DNA of 64,000 nt. Source: a virus. Below the pieces are notes generated by a model. The model was not told the DNA's origin. It ran no database searches and worked only from the letters and a program-made list of their open reading frames with translations. The translations under genes and the position numbers were made by a program. Shown piece by piece: positions 3,207-57,729 of this stretch. Where the stretch lies: positions 23,549 through 87,548 of the IMG/VR virus record IMGVR_UViG_3300042898_002521; one strand, 5' to 3'. Within the stretch, counting starts at the first letter, position 1. Each line of letters opens with the position of its first letter.

Positions 3207-4235
3207 TTACCTTGCTGTTGACCTAAACTCAGTACCTGCGTAAACTGCCCAGCCATCCATGATATGAATATTTTCAATACTAAAATCGTTGGCACCTTTA
3301 AAGTCGCCTGCTGATTTGTACCAAACTAGACCCATACCTTGTTGCCAGTCTTCGTACTGTAATACTGGGCGTTCATCAGCTTTAATCCCGCCTTTAACGG
3401 AAGGAACTGCGCCATCAATACGGCATAAGCAACCTGGGCTATACGCACCGTTTTGAACAGGACCTGCAAGTGTATCGTGAGTCTTGTAATGCAAATCCAT
3501 GCGGTGTGAATGACCGTAAACAGTAGTGTACATAGGCTCTTTACTTACGTACTTTGCCGCTGTAGAACCGTTAGAGTTGGCGGTCACGCCGTGGCGTGCT
3601 ACAAGACGATCGTTAATCCAAAACTTATCTGCTGGATACCCGTCTACATAGGTTACGCCAATATCGTCAAACCTAAGCAAATGAGGAATACTCATAACGG
3701 GAGTATCACTACCAATTTGTTTCATACGTGAACTAGCCATTGCGTTTAAGCCCACGTATCTTACAAGACGGCAATCATGGTTTCCTTCAATAAACACAAT
3801 TTCTGCGTCAGGGGAGATTGCTCTTTGACCAGCAATGTAATCATGACCAGCTTTTAAGGACTCATTAACAGTGTTAAAAAATGCATTTTCTTGAGCATAC
3901 TTACCAAACATAGGTAGGTCAATAGTATCTCCAAGATTAATAATTTGATCAATTCCGTATTCTTCTTCTAAAGTAGCCGTTACTTGCATGGCAACATTAA
4001 TAGCATTTATATCGTGGAATGGGTCTAAAGAACCGTCTTCATAACGACGGTATCCAATTTGGGTATCTGGCAATAGAACTGCCAATTTCCAATCGGTTTT
4101 GCCTTTTTTATTTTTAGTCTTTGTGGTTTTAGGCAATTTAGCGGCATTTACTGGTTTGAGAGTTGTTGACTCATCTACTTGTGGCTCGTTTAACGCAGCC
4201 ATAATGATGTCGATAAACTCTATTGTGTTTGACAT
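3207..4235 (-). CDS. Calcineurin-like metallophosphoesterase
   Basis: Motifs PDTQ, NLGD, EGNHD, HG, GHSH in canonical order. Confidence 0.85.
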   Translation of the reverse strand: MSNTIEFIDIIMAALNEPQVDESTTLKPVNAAKLPKTTKTKNKKGKTDWKLAVLLPDTQIGYRRYEDGSLDPFHDINAINVAMQVTATLEEEYGIDQIINLGDTIDLPMFGKYAQENAFFNTVNESLKAGHDYIAGQRAISPDAEIVFIEGNHDCRLVRYVGLNAMASSRMKQIGSDTPVMSIPHLLRFDDIGVTYVDGYPADKFWINDRLVARHGVTANSNGSTAAKYVSKEPMYTTVYGHSHRMDLHYKTHDTLAGPVQNGAYSPGCLCRIDGAVPSVKGGIKADERPVLQYEDWQQGMGLVWYKSAGDFKGANDFSIENIHIMDGWAVYAGTEFRSTAR

Positions 4236-4456
4236 TTACAGTCCCCTCGCACATGCGATTTAAAAGTGGTTGATTTGAATGGAAGGTCGGTTAAGGTAGT
4301 CATAGAACGGTATAAATTAGCTACATTGATTGATTTTTTTTGCATTAATAAAGCAAAACCTTCTTGGTCTGATTTACTTTGTTGATGTAACCAAGCGCCA
4401 AAACTACACTTAGCATCTGCATCATTTAAATGCTGTTTAATAATTTCACTAAACAC
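4220..4456 (-). CDS. Small hypothetical protein coupled to the phosphoesterase
   Basis: GTG start with AAGGAGG RBS; overlaps the next gene. Confidence 0.75.
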   Translation of the reverse strand: MFSEIIKQHLNDADAKCSFGAWLHQQSKSDQEGFALLMQKKSINVANLYRSMTTLTDLPFKSTTFKSHVRGDCKCQTQ

Positions 4457-4514
4457 GATTCCTCCTTGGAATTTCGTTGCCCATTCAGACTAGCATACAC
4501 ATAAATCTAAAAAC

Positions 4515-4546
4515 AACAAAACCCCAACTGAAAATTCAGTTGGGGC
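4515..4546 (-). terminator. Intrinsic terminator
   Basis: CCCCAACTG-AATTTT-CAGTTGGGG followed by TTTTGTTGTTTT on the minus strand. Confidence 0.75.
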
Positions 4547-10067: not shown

Positions 10068-12043
10068 TTTGCTTCTCCCCAACGGTCTACTACTTTTATG
10101 TCAGCTACTATAGGCACAGATAACAAATCAATACCCTCCATAGCATCTCGGATTGCTGACACCGTGTCATCAACCTTATCATTTGGAGTTAGTGTAACCA
10201 ACTCGTCATGAACTGTAAGAAGGAGCCTAGCACCTTCTGGCAGCCTTTTGTACGCACGCACCATAGCCAACTTAATAATGTCAGCGGCAGAGCCTTGAAT
10301 GCGTGTATTAAAAGCCTGTCGCTCTGCGGCAGACCTTAAAAATGGGTCACTAGATAAAATGTCTGGAAGGTACCGTTTACGACCTAATACGGTAGTTACA
10401 TAAGGAGGAGTGTTAGCTTTAGTTGCCCCAATAACTTTTATCCTATAAGAACTTACGGATGAAAACTCTGCCCCAAACCTAGAAAGCAAATCGCGGGCCT
10501 CAGTAATAGAACACCCAATAGAACGAGAAATTTTATCTGGGCCTACTCCGTATGCCATAGCGAGCACTAACACCTTACCTGCTTTACGATCCACTCCCAT
10601 GGTGTCACCTACTGTTGTGTAGATATCCCCACCCCTTGAATAGTTTTCCATCATAATAGGGTCTTTAGACATAGAGGCAATAACGCGGGGTTCAATCTGG
10701 GAGTAATCCGCCACTACAAGTTTGTATCCTTCGGGGGCAAAGAAAAGGTTTCTGATTGCCTTTCCGTGTGCTGTATGAGGTGCAGGAACGTTTTGAAGGT
10801 TAGGGTTACGACTGCTGAAACGACCAGTTTCCGCGCCGTGCTGTATGAAATCGCAATGAATCCTACCGCTAATAAGGAGCGAGTTTTTATGTTCACGTTT
10901 TTCCTTTCCTCCTGTAGTTCGAACTACTTCCCCACCTAAATAAGGCACTACATAAGTAGTACTCAATTTGTTAAGATCAGCGTAGGTAAGCATAGCATCC
11001 ACTAAAGGATCAGCTAACTTGTACGCTTCTAAAGCCTCGGCTGACACAGAGTAGTCTGAATAAGTAAGTTCCAAACCTTGTTCGGCCTTACGATTTCCAG
11101 CGGTAGTAAGAATTTTAGGCTTAAGCCCCCTACCGCCCTCGTCCTTAGAGCCGTACAACAATAATTGTTTTTCCTGGTTAGAGTTAATATTAAATGGGCG
11201 CTCAGCAATACGGAATATCTCTGCCCTGGCAGTTTCAATGTCAATTCGTAATTGCGCATCAAGGGCCTCTAGTTCAACCACATCTATTGGAGCACCTTCA
11301 AGTTTCATAGCGCATAAAACTTTAAGCACGTCCATTTCTAAACTCATAATAACGTCAAGCTCTGAGTCTTTAATTTTTGGAACTAAAGCTTTCCATAATA
11401 AGAAAGTATATTTAGCATCAAGAAAAGCATACTTGGCAACTTCGGTAAACGAATACTTCTCTACCTCTTTACCTACACCTTTAACCATCTCGTAACCAAA
11501 CTCACGCTTAAGGCAAGCGTCAAGCCCGCACTTGTTCTTGTTACGGTTATCACTAATAAATGATGCAATCATAGTGTCAAAATATGGGCCTGTAGGAACT
11601 TCCCCTTTATAGTACTTTGCGATGGATGTCAAATCAAAGATTAGGTTATGACCTACTGTAAGAAGGTTACTATTGAATAGAATAGGACGCAAAGCCTTAA
11701 ACACTTCATTAGGGTACAGCTGGGCTGGTGGGGGACCAAACTTTTTAGTGGCTTTTTTCTTATCCCGTGAGTAATCACTAGGGCGAGCGGTAAGGCCTGC
11801 TTCTACGCGTTTCTCGCCTTGGCCTGTAAGTGGAAACACTTCCTCTACAAAATCACCGTTAGGGTGTCCCATTGGAATTACATCGCACCGACCGTGAGTG
11901 GCAAAAGTAATCCATAAGACCTCGTTAATCGGAGTAACCCCACGATTATCGCCAACGGTTTCTACGTCAAATGCAAAAGCGTCTTGTGTTAAATAATGTG
12001 CGACCATGTCATTTAACTGGTCAAGTGTAGTAATAATATTCAT
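10064..12043 (-). CDS. polA: Family A DNA polymerase with 3'-5' exonuclease
   Basis: Exo I DVET, Exo II GHNLIFD, Exo III YAFLD; TGRFSSRNPNLQN; motif A DYSQIE; motif B RKAGKVLVLAMAYG; motif C VHDE; start ATG 12043 with TAAGGGG RBS. Confidence 0.96.
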   Translation of the reverse strand: MNIITTLDQLNDMVAHYLTQDAFAFDVETVGDNRGVTPINEVLWITFATHGRCDVIPMGHPNGDFVEEVFPLTGQGEKRVEAGLTARPSDYSRDKKKATKKFGPPPAQLYPNEVFKALRPILFNSNLLTVGHNLIFDLTSIAKYYKGEVPTGPYFDTMIASFISDNRNKNKCGLDACLKREFGYEMVKGVGKEVEKYSFTEVAKYAFLDAKYTFLLWKALVPKIKDSELDVIMSLEMDVLKVLCAMKLEGAPIDVVELEALDAQLRIDIETARAEIFRIAERPFNINSNQEKQLLLYGSKDEGGRGLKPKILTTAGNRKAEQGLELTYSDYSVSAEALEAYKLADPLVDAMLTYADLNKLSTTYVVPYLGGEVVRTTGGKEKREHKNSLLISGRIHCDFIQHGAETGRFSSRNPNLQNVPAPHTAHGKAIRNLFFAPEGYKLVVADYSQIEPRVIASMSKDPIMMENYSRGGDIYTTVGDTMGVDRKAGKVLVLAMAYGVGPDKISRSIGCSITEARDLLSRFGAEFSSVSSYRIKVIGATKANTPPYVTTVLGRKRYLPDILSSDPFLRSAAERQAFNTRIQGSAADIIKLAMVRAYKRLPEGARLLLTVHDELVTLTPNDKVDDTVSAIRDAMEGIDLLSVPIVADIKVVDRWGEAK

Positions 12044-12059
12044 AGCATGCCCCTTAAGA

Positions 12060-12099
12060 GCCACTAGCGGTAGGAAAGGGGGTACCTACCGCTAGTGGC
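12060..12099 (-). promoter_or_regulatory. 15-bp perfect hairpin with anti-SD-like loop UACCCCCUUU, immediately upstream of the polA RBS
   Basis: GCCACTAGCGGTAGG / CCTACCGCTAGTGGC inverted repeat, 10-nt loop. Confidence 0.7.
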
Positions 12100-14721: not shown

Positions 14722-16416
14722 TTATCTCCTTGCTAACGAGGTGGTAACTCCACCAACAATTACTTGTCCAACAAGAACCACAGCTACTGTGCCTTGTTGA
14801 GCGGTCTTTCTAATTTCTTTTGGTAGGTCTGCACCTACGTTGGAAATAGCTTTAAGGGCTTTTTCTGGGTCTGTGAATACTGTGGCAAGAAGTTCTGCTG
14901 GGTCTTCAAAGATTTCAATAGCGTCTGCAATTTCTGCAAGCAAAACCACACCGTTTTCTAATGTGATCGGTTGGTCTGGAGGCAAATCTTCGTAATCCAA
15001 ACCAGACTCTTCAAATACATCAGCGGGAATGGCTGTATCTTCGTACGCGGCTACCAAAACATCAGATAAAAATTCTTTTTCATCTTCAGTTAAAACCACA
15101 GTAGGGTCAAAAGTATCAAACAGATTTGTTAATTCTTCTTCAGTAATCTCTCCATCAGACAAAAAAGCATCAATTACATCAGCCGTATCCGCTGCAGAAA
15201 TTGAACCGTCAGATAGTGCTTCAGAAACAAGTTCTGTAGTTTCTTCTGCGGATGTTATAGTTGGTTCTATTGTAGGTTCAGGAAATGGTGATTCACTTTG
15301 AGTAGGTTCAGGTATTGGCGTTGGCTCTGGGTCCAGAGGTGGCTCAACACTCGCAGTCGGTTCAGGCTCTGGAGTCTGTGTTTCTACTGGCGTTGGTACA
15401 ACAACTTCAGGAGTTGGTTCAGGTGTTAAAGTTTCTGAAGGGCTTGGGGTTGGCTCTGGGGTTGGTTCTGGGGATGGCGTTGGTTCAAGGCTTGGTGTTG
15501 GCTCTGGCGTGGGTGTTACTGTTGGTTCTGGTGTCGGGGTGGGACTAGGTTCCACAGGGCACGTCTGATTCCACATAATTACAGACCCGTCCCAGCAAGT
15601 AATGTCTGGTGGCGTAGGCGGACATTGAGCGTCCCAGCTAACTGAAGTACCGTCCCAGCACTCAAGTGGTGGAGGTTGTTGAGGGCAGGTTTGGCTCCAA
15701 GTAATCCATGACCCATCCCAACACTGTGTATCAGGCGGTACGGGTGGGCAAGTCTCATTCCAAGCTACGGTAGACCCATCCCAGCATTGGCCTGGAGGGG
15801 GCTCTGGAGGGCACGTAGAGGTCAAGGGAATGACAGACCCATCCCAGCATGACTGCATCTCTACAGGAAGCCCACCGTTGACGGTAAAGGCCTCAGAGAT
15901 GGTTACAACGTCTGTGTTAGGGGCAAATCGGATACCACGCCGCAAGTCTGCAGGAAGCCATCCTGTGGTTTCTACAGTGCCCGACCATGAAGGGTACCTG
16001 GCTATATCTACAGTTAATTTAATTTCAGTTATTGCTCCAGTTGATTGTGGGTAAGGTCGAACCTTCCAAAGCACACAAAAACCTGTGTTGTTAACGCCAT
16101 AACTTAAACTAGTACCCTCACCAAAAGTTACCCAGTCATACCCAGCAAGGGAAATAGATGGGGTATTAGGGTAGGAACTAAAATTAGCGTCAGGAGTACC
16201 AAACGTAAGCGTTCCATTAGTAGTTACATACGTAATGTCATAGGTAGTATCACCTAGTGGTAATGAAAATGGCAAAATCATTTGATGCGCAGCGTCATCT
16301 TCCCGCGTCCATGAGTAAGTGTCACAGGGAGCATCTACCACTGCGTAAGCGGGCACAGCGTTTAACGGAAAAGCAAATGCAAATGCCAGGGCAGCAAAAA
16401 TTTTAAAGGATTTCAA
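14722..16416 (-). CDS. Secreted, C-terminally anchored surface protein with five CWDG repeats and a Pro/Thr/Glu linker
   Basis: Signal peptide ending AYA; 5 x CWDG-x8-CP repeats of 21 aa; PTPE repeats; acidic domain; hydrophobic tail followed by RR. Confidence 0.8.
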   Translation of the reverse strand: MKSFKIFAALAFAFAFPLNAVPAYAVVDAPCDTYSWTREDDAAHQMILPFSLPLGDTTYDITYVTTNGTLTFGTPDANFSSYPNTPSISLAGYDWVTFGEGTSLSYGVNNTGFCVLWKVRPYPQSTGAITEIKLTVDIARYPSWSGTVETTGWLPADLRRGIRFAPNTDVVTISEAFTVNGGLPVEMQSCWDGSVIPLTSTCPPEPPPGQCWDGSTVAWNETCPPVPPDTQCWDGSWITWSQTCPQQPPPLECWDGTSVSWDAQCPPTPPDITCWDGSVIMWNQTCPVEPSPTPTPEPTVTPTPEPTPSLEPTPSPEPTPEPTPSPSETLTPEPTPEVVVPTPVETQTPEPEPTASVEPPLDPEPTPIPEPTQSESPFPEPTIEPTITSAEETTELVSEALSDGSISAADTADVIDAFLSDGEITEEELTNLFDTFDPTVVLTEDEKEFLSDVLVAAYEDTAIPADVFEESGLDYEDLPPDQPITLENGVVLLAEIADAIEIFEDPAELLATVFTDPEKALKAISNVGADLPKEIRKTAQQGTVAVVLVGQVIVGGVTTSLARR

Positions 16417-16481
16417 TGCCAGTTCTCTCCTAAGGGCAATACATAAAGTTTACCCGAAGAAAGAATAATAATCTTGGCTTG

Positions 16482-16553
16482 CTCCCCGCCGTGGACTTGA
16501 ACCACGAACATTTCGATTAACAGTCGAACGCTCTGCCATTGAGCTAGCAGGGA
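16482..16553 (-). tRNA. trnN: tRNA-Asn (GTT), CCA not encoded
   Basis: Full cloverleaf: TCCCTGC/GCGGGGA acceptor, GCTC/GAGC D-stem, TTCGA-CTGTTAA-TCGAA anticodon arm, CGTGG-TTCAAGT-CCACG T-arm. Confidence 0.95.
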
Positions 16554-16557
16554 TTAG

Positions 16558-16636
16558 TGGAGCAGTCGAGAGTCGAACTCGATTCCTAACATTTCCGACA
16601 TGCGGAGTTAATGCCAGTCGATACCAAATCTGCCCC
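16558..16636 (-). ncRNA. ssrA: Mini-tmRNA: tRNA-like domain only, no mRNA-like domain
   Basis: GGGGCAG/CTGCTCC-A acceptor with G3:U wobble; stemless D-loop ATTTGGTATCGA; helix CTGGCATT/AATGTTAG capped by TCCG-CATGT-CGGA; GAA linker; TCGAG-TTCGACT-CTCGA T-arm. Confidence 0.85.
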
Positions 16637-54652: not shown

Positions 54653-56251
54653 CTACCTAGAGAAAAATGGTGAAGACGAAACTTCTGCTTCTGGCATGGT
54701 CATATCTAGTGTTAGACAGCACGCAATGGCTAAAGAATCAGCAAAATCATCATGTGCATGAGCTTCGTCTGGAGCTTGCGCCGTAAAGTTAGGGCCTTGA
54801 AATTTAGTCTCTAAATCAGTCATTTGCTGGTAAAAACGCTTATAGGTACGCAATCTACGAGTCTTAGCGTGTGCTGGAAATCCAATCATACGACGGTCAA
54901 TAAGAGCCTTAAGATGCTTCCAACGTTTAGACTGCTCAGACTGGCTACTGCTTAAAGGAACAACTTCTGCTCTTGGTAAAAGAAGTTTAAGACGCTGGGC
55001 CACTGCGTCACCTACACCGTTTGCGTCAACTCCAACAATTAACACATTGTAGTTGGCAAGGAAGTTTACAATCTGGAAGTACTGGTCTTCCCAGTCATCA
55101 CCTTGAATTTCCATCCAGTTAAGTACGCGATGATCGTAGTAACCAAATTCATCAGGTCGGTCCCAATCAACCCAGACAACGGTAACTACTGTACTGTCCA
55201 TCTTTCGAGCAGGGTCAATACCAACAACTACAGGAGTACGGTGCCAAGCACGTACTACTTCTTGGCTGGTATCTCCAAGCTCATCCATAATAGTGGACGT
55301 AACGAACATACCTTTTTCAAGCATCCACTTGCAGTTGTAAGACATCTGGAACTCATCAGAGTCTTCACCAATGCGCAACATTTCTTTACGAACGAACTTA
55401 TCGTATTTAGGGTTAACTTTAGACACGTCTCGCCAGTCCCATTGAAAATGATTTTGGCGTTTCCCACGGTTGGTCTGTCGTCTTTTATTTAACTGAATGG
55501 ACCGATAAAAGTTATTCTTAACATTAGTAGGTGTTCCAGTCTTAACCATAGTTCCCGAGTAGTACGCAAGCATAGGGCTAATAGATTTTGAAACAATAAA
55601 GTCGTCTGCGCCCTGGCACTCATCAATAACAATAAGGTGAAATGACTTGGATTCAATTTTGGCGCGGGGGTTGGCGGTCATCATCATAAGGCTACTGCCA
55701 GAGTTTTTAAGTTTGATTTGGCGCGTAATGCCTGGGACTTTTCCAAGAGAGTCGTCAATTTCTGGGTCACCTAATATTTCTTGGGCCCTTTCAGATGTAA
55801 GGCGATTTACAGTTCTACCAAACAAAGTTTCTACCTGGCCCTCAACGGGAGCGAACATACCAATCCATATACCGTGTTTAAACTGACCGAGTAAGTCAGG
55901 ATACATTTGAGCAAGACGTGGAAGTAAAACCATTAATGTGGCTACTGTGTTAGCAATGGTTTCTGATTTTCCAGACTGGCGAGCCGCAAGGGCGGTAACC
56001 TCTTCGCCATCATTAATAATTACCGATTCCATAATACGACGCGCTAAAGGAAGCTGGTAAGGGTGTAAAGAGTGCCCTACAAGAGCGTCCATGAATTCAA
56101 GCATGTTATCAATAAGTTTATTTACAAACTCTTTGGATAACTCATCCAGCTCTTCTTCATCGGATGGGTCTTCAGTGCCTATTCCATCAAGGAATTCTTC
56201 TTCTTCTTCTTCTGAACCCTCTTCGTAAAAGAGGTGTTGAGTTTCGCTCAT
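54653..56251 (-). CDS. terL: Terminase large subunit
   Basis: LHPYQ, ARQSGKS, VIDE, TGTP, GIDPAR..D, DANGVG, HDDFADS. Confidence 0.96.
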   Translation of the reverse strand: MSETQHLFYEEGSEEEEEEFLDGIGTEDPSDEEELDELSKEFVNKLIDNMLEFMDALVGHSLHPYQLPLARRIMESVIINDGEEVTALAARQSGKSETIANTVATLMVLLPRLAQMYPDLLGQFKHGIWIGMFAPVEGQVETLFGRTVNRLTSERAQEILGDPEIDDSLGKVPGITRQIKLKNSGSSLMMMTANPRAKIESKSFHLIVIDECQGADDFIVSKSISPMLAYYSGTMVKTGTPTNVKNNFYRSIQLNKRRQTNRGKRQNHFQWDWRDVSKVNPKYDKFVRKEMLRIGEDSDEFQMSYNCKWMLEKGMFVTSTIMDELGDTSQEVVRAWHRTPVVVGIDPARKMDSTVVTVVWVDWDRPDEFGYYDHRVLNWMEIQGDDWEDQYFQIVNFLANYNVLIVGVDANGVGDAVAQRLKLLLPRAEVVPLSSSQSEQSKRWKHLKALIDRRMIGFPAHAKTRRLRTYKRFYQQMTDLETKFQGPNFTAQAPDEAHAHDDFADSLAIACCLTLDMTMPEAEVSSSPFFSR

Positions 56252-56297
56252 GTATCTTCCAAACTAATAAAACCGATAAATAAAGGATACAGGAATG

Positions 56298-56378
56298 AAA
56301 GAGCTCTAGCGTGTAAGAAAGGAGGAAGAAACACGCTAGAGCTCAGTTGCCACCTTAGGAGAGGTAAAGAAGTGAGGC
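56298..56378 (-). ncRNA. Candidate anti-Shine-Dalgarno RNA element/terminator
   Basis: 14-bp perfect stem with loop UUCUUCCUCCUUUCUU followed by UUU; upstream weaker hairpin exposing CUCUCCUAAG. Confidence 0.55.
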
Positions 56379-56385
56379 TTTACTA

Positions 56386-56637
56386 CTATAGCATAGAGCG
56401 CTTATTTATTTCAGATGCCAAAGCATGTATAGCTTCAGCACCTAAAGATAAATCTTGTAAACTAACTACATCGTTAGGGTTTTTTTGATACCTGCCAAGT
56501 GCTCGGTTAGTCTCTGAAATAGCCTGTTCTGTCCATAGGTACAAGTCCGCGGTAGCTAACTTCGCTACTCTATTGGCTACTTTCTCAGAAAAAGGTTTGT
56601 CCCAGTTTTCTTTTTTAACCCAAAATTTTAGTCCCAT
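56386..56637 (-). CDS. Hypothetical protein
   Basis: Start moved to ATG 56637 (GAGGAG RBS). Confidence 0.7.
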   Translation of the reverse strand: MGLKFWVKKENWDKPFSEKVANRVAKLATADLYLWTEQAISETNRALGRYQKNPNDVVSLQDLSLGAEAIHALASEINKRSML

Positions 56638-56891
56638 TCCAATAACTCCTCTAGTGGTACGTCTAATTTCCTGCCCCAAATTGCCGCAGTAAGGGCCTCA
56701 TTTTCAGTTTGAGATTCAGCCCATTTTCCTATGACAAATCCTGGCTTAGTAAATGGTACACGAAATACTAGGCAACTGCCTCTACGGTAAGGCTCTTCAA
56801 TTTCGTGAGTCCAACCTTTTTCAAAAACTGGCAGGGCATCCCTATGTGGGTATTTAATTATTTGTCCATATAGTGGTCCAATTAAATTCAT
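56628..56891 (-). CDS. Hypothetical protein
   Basis: 87-aa ORF, TAATG coupling. Confidence 0.7.
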   Translation of the reverse strand: MNLIGPLYGQIIKYPHRDALPVFEKGWTHEIEEPYRRGSCLVFRVPFTKPGFVIGKWAESQTENEALTAAIWGRKLDVPLEELLEWD

Positions 56892-57424: not shown

Positions 57425-57690
57425 TAAATATCACACTCGTGAAGGTCTAGTTCGTCTTCTCGCACCCGCTCATGGCAATCGTAACATCTGTACCATTTAA
57501 GGGGTTCAAAGTTGTTTTGAGCGGTGGCTCCCATAGGGAAGTTTTCTCCGTCTTCGCCAAACGCTTGTTCATACTCGTAATTAATAGGTCCCTGCATAAA
57601 CAACTCAGCGGGAAACGGACCTCGCGGGTTATGTACCGTACTAGGCACTGGGTGACCCTGAAACGTTTGAATTGTTCTAATTACGTGCAT
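57424..57690 (-). CDS. Hypothetical protein with C-terminal CxxC-H-C, leaderless
   Basis: TATTCT -10 box 6 nt before ATG. Confidence 0.7.
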   Translation of the reverse strand: MHVIRTIQTFQGHPVPSTVHNPRGPFPAELFMQGPINYEYEQAFGEDGENFPMGATAQNNFEPLKWYRCYDCHERVREDELDLHECDI

Positions 57691-57703
57691 AGTCTAAGAA
57701 TAG

Positions 57704-57729
57704 CAAAAGGGCGCCCCATAGGGCGCCCT
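57704..57729 (-). terminator. Intrinsic terminator
   Basis: AGGGCGCCC-TATG-GGGCGCCCT followed by TTT. Confidence 0.8.

Follow-up and report, generated by a model that had tools for sequence, protein, structure and literature searches.

The sequence analyzed here, referred to as the window, is 64 kb long and makes up the right-hand part of an IMG/VR virus record of 87.5 kb. The phage encodes two WhiB genes and its large terminase, TerL, is closest to the terminase of Streptomyces phage BRock (54.6% identity), suggesting that the host is likely an actinobacterium; comparison with actinobacterial 16S rRNA is therefore appropriate. DNA near-identical to the window is present in lake-water metagenomes; no RNA dataset was listed among those that contain the stretch. 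The terL gene (54653-56251, minus strand; phrog_2 at 1.8e-32, Terminase_6N and Terminase_6C) is the first gene of the structural module, and all genes in this part of the window lie on the minus strand. The ORF upstream of terL (56386-56679, minus strand; 84-97 aa) had no match in Pfam, PHROG or Atlas. The 134-nt gap between the stop of this ORF (56386) and the terL ATG (56251) contains a terminator-type hairpin, HP2, which belongs to a compact series of minus-strand elements, hereafter called the cassette.

The cassette starts with P1, a putative extended -10 element (TGcTATAGT, 56385-56393), which overlaps the 3' end of the upstream ORF, including its stop codon (56386-56388). P1 was found by a promoter scan as CTGAAA-18-TATAGT with TG, in a scan whose promoter-like matches occurred at shuffle level. 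The RNA predicted from P1 would begin at G56378, 7 nt after the -10 element. Its 5' domain, HP1 (56349-56378), is formed by a weak helix (GCC/GGC and ACCU/AGGU) around the CU-rich stretch CUUCUUUACCUCUCCU, and corresponds to the second, weaker hairpin that an earlier note on this DNA had placed 5' of HP2. HP2 itself (56301-56344) is a perfect 14-bp stem (5' arm 56344-56331, 3' arm 56314-56301) with a 16-nt all-pyrimidine loop, UUCUUCCUCCUUUCUU (56330-56315), as that note had described for the transcribed strand. Directly 3' of HP2 is the U-rich tract UUUCAUUC (56293-56300; 5 U of 8), followed by a second -10-like hexamer, P2 (TATCCT, 56284-56289), which is likely the terL promoter, and by the terL 5' untranslated region (56252-56283). 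The latter carries a weak Shine-Dalgarno (SD) sequence, GGAAGA (56255-56260), and its AGUUUGGA..ACAUG is conserved in the window's subfamily of relatives.

The window contains only two perfect stems of at least 14 bp, and none were found in 100 first-order shuffles. The predicted 86-nt RNA (56378 to ~56293) folds at -30.7 kcal/mol (z = -8.0) into two hairpins, and the HP1 and HP2 loops are both predicted to be unpaired. With regard to intrinsic termination, HP2 has a stable GC-rich stem and a 3' U tract, although this tract is imperfect in the window, while its 16-nt loop lies outside the usual range of ~3-8 nt, which is why HP2 was missed by a terminator consensus scan. Ten nucleotides of the loop, CCUCCUUUCU, are identical to the 3' tail of 16S rRNA; the proposal that the loop copies the 16S 3' end was thus borne out by the 16S genes of four actinobacterial genomes, which read ...GGATCACCTCCTTTCT/AAGGAG... 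A search of the region against Rfam gave no match at gathering score or at E<=10, the same search with 7 relatives gave none at E<=1, and megablast against a phage collection gave no match. Matches of a 16-mer of the leader to genome contigs were swamped by chance matches and gave no indication of the host.

Other structured elements in the window

The other terminators in the window had been described as having loops of 4-6 nt. This is the case for the canonical terminators at 4522, 49955 and 57708, but a large hairpin at 12060-12099 (minus strand) consists of a perfect 15-bp stem with a 10-nt C-rich loop, UACCCCCUUU. This hairpin is located 4 nt upstream of the SD AAGGGG (12050-12055) of a family-A DNA polymerase gene (ATG at 12043; Pfam 4.6e-85). 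Three relatives keep a hairpin before the polymerase gene with quite different stems and with loops complementary to their own SD (CCCCUU:AAGGGG; UAUCCC:GGGAUA). The 12060-12099 hairpin is put forward as a possible translational operator, similar to that of T4 gene 43.

At 57688-57729 (minus strand), a UAUG loop caps a terminator stem of 9 bp; TGCTATTCT comes immediately after it, then TAGACT and an ATG (57690), which leaves no room for an SD and represents a second instance of the order terminator, -10 element, start codon. At 4453-4545 (minus strand), a canonical terminator is followed by TGTGTATGCT and by the strongest SD of the window, AAGGAGGAA, located 2 nt before the GTG start (4456) of a 78-aa ORF (4220-4456); 9 nt of this SD are complementary to the HP2 loop. 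In addition, a tRNA-Asn gene adjoins a stretch of 82 nt that matches the tmRNA model over its tRNA-like ends only (16481-16636, minus strand).

Conservation of the cassette upstream of terL

Among 599 candidate TerL-related stretches, 80 were taken and supplemented with motif scans; approximately 67 distinct versions of the terL-upstream region were compared, with aligned sets of n=43 and n=31. No counterpart of the cassette precedes terL in BRock. The cassette is shared by numerous contigs of lake-water phages that form a large family, and it consists of four parts. The first is a -10 hexamer with T, A and the final T invariant in the 43 and in the 31 aligned relatives, often preceded by TGn (e.g., TGcTATAGT in the window and TGcTATAAT in relative L134). 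In the main family this hexamer is intergenic, after the upstream stop codon, and its conservation is therefore not a stop-codon effect. The second part is a conserved RNA that begins with GCCUC, always 6-7 variable nt after the -10 hexamer; conservation begins at the predicted +1 and the discriminator before it varies. HP1 is the most conserved part family-wide, with the core CUCxCCCGU in the main family and CUCUCCUA(A/U)GGU in the window's subfamily, and its closing helix covaries (ACCU/AGGU in L031 and L046, GCCGCG/CGUGGC in L062). The third part, which corresponds to HP2, is a GC-rich hairpin that is followed by a U tract in all relatives and often preceded by a matching A tract; the U tracts of relatives are stronger than that of the window (e.g., CUUUUUGUUUU). 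The fourth part is a second TAnnnT approximately 10 nt further on, with T and A invariant in 43/43 aligned relatives.

A covariance model identified one cassette copy per genome, before terL, in the genomes checked. Among DNA contigs, near-identical strains keep the HP2 loop, whereas in one relative the leader is the same but the hairpin after it is another one, with a short loop. The cassette is a real, conserved and uncatalogued phage RNA element. Several relatives differ in the arrangement of this region. In L134 (6860-6980), the gene directly after the cassette is not terL but encodes a GT25 glycosyltransferase; P2 reads TGCTACAAT there and the ATG of this gene comes 6 nt later, a spacing that, by its sequence, is the layout of a leaderless actinobacterial gene. 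L013 and L019 have neither leader nor hairpin and carry a single extended -10 element, TGGTATAGT, joined to the same terL 5' untranslated region, ~45 nt upstream of terL. L077-L080 carry a tRNA-like sequence (identified by eye) instead of the cassette immediately upstream of terL. Main-family members also have a palindrome, which reads TTGTCGACAA or TTATCGACAA, just upstream of the first -10 hexamer (e.g., L053 2837-2860 and L063 2861-2885); it is operator-like and is absent from the window's subfamily.

The universal second hexamer, the leaderless layout in L134 and the single -10 element in L013 and L019 favour a separate RNA gene followed by a terL promoter. The cassette is probably a self-contained non-coding RNA gene of ~86 nt (~56378 to ~56293, minus strand), located between the last pre-terminase ORF and P2, which would serve terL. 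Transcription would start from P1, HP1 would display the CU-rich stretch in the RNA and HP2 would be its Rho-independent terminator. The earlier note had proposed a small RNA derived from a 3' UTR; a discrete RNA is indeed probable, but a simple 3'-UTR origin is not supported: the conserved RNA is preceded, at a distance of 7 nt, by an invariant extended -10 element of its own.

A different arrangement would be a switch acting in cis on the late operon, in which P1 is the late promoter and HP2 a promoter-proximal terminator that RNA polymerase passes only with the help of a phage factor or of the leader RNA itself, with the CU-rich leader and the HP2 loop as recognition sites. The order of promoter, short leader, intrinsic terminator and late genes is classical for such a switch, and wherever the covariance model was applied, the single copy of the cassette immediately precedes terL. 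The main-family palindrome just upstream of the -10 hexamer could be an operator or a loading site, a loop kept on top of a covarying stem would be just as typical of a hairpin bound by a protein, and the position of the L134 cassette directly before the GT25 glycosyltransferase gene fits a role in cis as well. Nevertheless, all 43 aligned relatives have another -10-like hexamer beyond the terminator, with a leaderless layout in L134, so that read-through would be unnecessary, and L013 and L019 manage without leader and terminator. Moreover, no antiterminator candidate was recognized among the neighbouring ORFs, and loop sequence and length vary freely across the family. A late-operon switch is the main rival of the small RNA gene, though a less probable reading of the cassette.

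Covariation of the HP2 stem and variation of its loop

In 13 relatives with long loops, the HP2 stem has 12 common pairs with 96.8% of cells paired, compared to 25-55% for slid controls, and 9 of the 12 pairs have changed on both sides; none of 500 shuffles had as high a score. Five cells of the stem contain G-U wobble pairs, which agrees with the minus strand. This bears on the alternative raised in the earlier note, a plus-strand RNA whose loops, with AGAAAGGAGG or GGA, would soak up 30S subunits or CsrA-type proteins. The inverted repeat does fold on the plus strand too (z = -3.6), but the U tract, the promoter and the other -10 elements that are conserved, as well as all genes, belong to the minus strand, and no start codon was found when an antisense ORF was sought after the plus-strand SD. 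Actinobacteria are not known to possess CsrA. A plus-strand sponge can hence be regarded as barely credible.

The covarying stem agrees with what the earlier note had expected from a covariance search; the invariant loop that it had also expected was not found. In the main family, every loop is 3-7 nt long (e.g., UAAC) and CCUCC is absent, and within the window's clade the loop with CCUCC has been lost or replaced at least 4 times. By comparison, in the window's subfamily, which is characterized by the leader ...CCUCUCCUAAGGUGGC, 12 of the 21 distinct cassettes have loops of 15-20 nt with unchanged CCUCC. This motif is kept in 7 distinct loop types while the loop flanks and the stem pairs change (e.g., UUCCUCCUUUCUU, UCACCUCCUUUGG, UUCCCUCCUUUCG, AACCUCCCUUUU and UCACCUCCUCUGA), and a search of metagenome contigs found no further loop types. 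The identity with 16S rRNA is extended in the 5' direction to UCACCUCCUUU in L108 and to UCACCUCCU in L134, and in the 3' direction to CCUCCUUUCU in the window and L137, so that UCACCUCCUUUCU of the 16S tail is represented among the loop variants taken together. In the TerL tree, loops with CCUCC fall into three separate subclades, interleaved with unrelated long loops, short loops and phages without a cassette. L119, whose TerL is 93% identical over the N-terminal 340 aa (94% in the search for TerL relatives), has exactly the same stem with five loop changes. Taken together, the 7 contexts in which CCUCC is kept and the interleaved losses on the TerL tree indicate that CCUCC is selected where present, yet repeatedly dispensable.

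Variation of this kind could also be expected if HP2 were a plain terminator of the upstream genes, with a functionless pyrimidine loop whose likeness to 16S rRNA arises from its low-complexity CU composition. CU-rich stretches abound in the cassette, most relatives use loops of 3-7 nt, and L119 has five loop changes on an exactly preserved stem. That CCUCC is unchanged in 7 loop types with diverged flanks and stems, across the three TerL subclades, is difficult to reconcile with a functionless loop, and the leader and the -10 hexamer are far more conserved than a bare terminator requires. A plain terminator is thus an unlikely explanation of the cassette.

The similarity to the 16S tail could, on the other hand, reflect mimicry of the (pre-)16S 3' end itself, with the loop and the anti-SD-like/AAGG layout of HP1 binding a protein that recognizes the tail. 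Candidates for such a protein would be a maturation factor such as Era or a toxin RNase of the MazF type that cuts the anti-SD. In favour of a decoy, the match of the loop variants to the 16S tail reaches beyond CCUCC to one side or the other and is up to 11 nt long, and pre-16S rRNA (...CCUCCUUUCU/AAGGAG) resembles the window leader (ACCUCUCCUAAGGUGG). However, selection for SD binding would lead an RNA to the same sequence, no protein emerged as a candidate, and the main family is without the mimic. A decoy of this type is accordingly considered very unlikely.

Possible pairing partners of the loops

The earlier note had pointed to an 11-nt complement of the weaker hairpin in the ribosome binding site (RBS) of a surface-protein gene, near 16424-16434. 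This complement, CCTTAGGAGAG, is real and was found at 16425-16435 (minus strand), upstream of the TTG start of the gene at 14722-16416. Matches to CCTTAGGAGAG with at most 1 mismatch numbered 3 compared to 0.96 expected, and since 10 of 100 shuffles did as well, the match to the surface-protein RBS is at chance level. In the contigs of five relatives, ACGGGGAGAGG matched only the leader itself, with no analogous target, and the prediction of this gene as a target was therefore not upheld. The longest complement of the HP2 loop in the window is 9 nt (4459-4467), and no significant phage target for the loops was found in the window or in the relatives searched.

Pairing within the transcript was considered as well. 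The HP2 loop and the terL RBS could form 6 bp in the window (UCUUCC/GGAAGA), but this pairing was rejected as it shows no covariation in L113, L117, L108, L127 and L119. A pseudoknot between the loop CCUCCUU and the leader AAGGUGG was also rejected, given a U-U mismatch, the lack of compensation in AUGGUGG variants and short connectors. A search for phage-encoded S21 or cold-shock proteins as loop binders found none.

A proposed small RNA gene with an anti-SD loop

Among the explanations considered, a small RNA gene with C-rich loops that pair with SD sequences is put forward, tentatively, as the best. In the window's clade, the terminator loop would have been enlarged to 15-20 nt and would carry a selected CCUCC(U)UU, which equals the anti-SD core of 16S rRNA. 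The exposed C-rich loops may then pair with G-rich RBSs of host or phage mRNAs and hinder binding of the 30S subunit. This mode of action, proposed by analogy, is a possibility to be held with clearly more reserve than the RNA gene itself. A riboregulator pairing with SDs in trans was ranked first because the anatomy of the cassette matches that of small RNAs with C-rich loops, such as 6C, the cuckoo RNAs and RNAIII. Several observations fit this explanation poorly: the CCUCC loop is dispensable and no main-family member has it, an anti-SD of such a generic kind would act on the AAGGAG sites of the phage too, and the fixed position before the late module fits a role in cis equally well. The imperfect U tract of the window and a 16-nt loop are, in addition, atypical for a terminator.

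S. aureus RNAIII is a chromosomal, quorum-controlled RNA of 514 nt with hairpins 13 and 14 in its 3' domain. The C-rich loop of its terminator hairpin pairs with SD regions of targets, which resembles the arrangement proposed for HP2, but RNAIII has no sequence relation to the cassette. In Actinobacteria, the small RNA 6C binds G-rich RBSs through its C-rich loops without chaperones (PMC6486639). The cassette resembles 6C (RF01066; 6C/B11 of M. tuberculosis; PMC6486639) in that both are short RNAs with two exposed pyrimidine loops in one molecule, and its unpaired C-rich loops are represented by CUCxCCCGU or CUCUCC in HP1 and by CCUCC in HP2 of the window's clade. Unlike 6C, the cassette is phage-encoded, lies before terL and has no match to the RF01066 covariance model; the loops of 6C are runs of C, whereas those of the cassette are CU-rich with a literal CCUCC and one of them is a terminator loop.

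The cuckoo RNAs also have a C-rich-loop design (PMC4615179). The cuckoo/alpha-r14 family (RF02344; CcsR1-4 and NfeR1; PMC4615179) shares with the cassette an anti-SD-like word in the loops (CCUCCUCCC in the cuckoo RNAs) on variable stems. However, these RNAs are encoded on alphaproteobacterial chromosomes, often in tandem, whereas the cassette is single-copy, belongs to phages of another host phylum, has no Rfam match and carries the loop word CCUCCUUU instead of CCUCCUCCC. With lambda PR'-tR'/Q (PMC6606751, PMC9388147), the cassette shares the layout of a promoter followed by an intrinsic terminator within ~100 nt, upstream of late genes, which would give a short terminated RNA. It differs in that its sequence has a conserved -10 element after the terminator, that its leader is a conserved CU-rich hairpin and that no Q-like gene or sigma-dependent pause element was identified. 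If the cassette acted as a switch in cis, it would also resemble the AlpA or HK022 put RNA systems.

An unlikely but more far-reaching extension is that a small RNA of a widespread lake actinophage family copies the 16S 3' tail in order to compete with ribosomes for SDs, thereby favouring late messages with weak SDs or without leaders, such as terL, or to act as a decoy for a host factor that recognizes or cuts the anti-SD. If this were true, the cassette would represent a phage takeover or counter-defence device that operates through rRNA mimicry.

Essentially nothing is known about regulatory RNAs in phages of the abundant, hard-to-culture freshwater Actinobacteria. Dozens of different versions of the cassette, which is absent from Rfam, are conserved, each located where the packaging and structural genes begin. 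Its natural variants, with a CCUCC loop, another long loop, a short loop or no cassette, represent a ready series of mutants. If the cassette is a riboregulator with an anti-SD seed, as tentatively preferred here, it would extend the C-rich-loop mechanism of actinobacterial small RNAs to phages and would provide a compact handle on the timing of late translation, or on host shut-off, by these phages.
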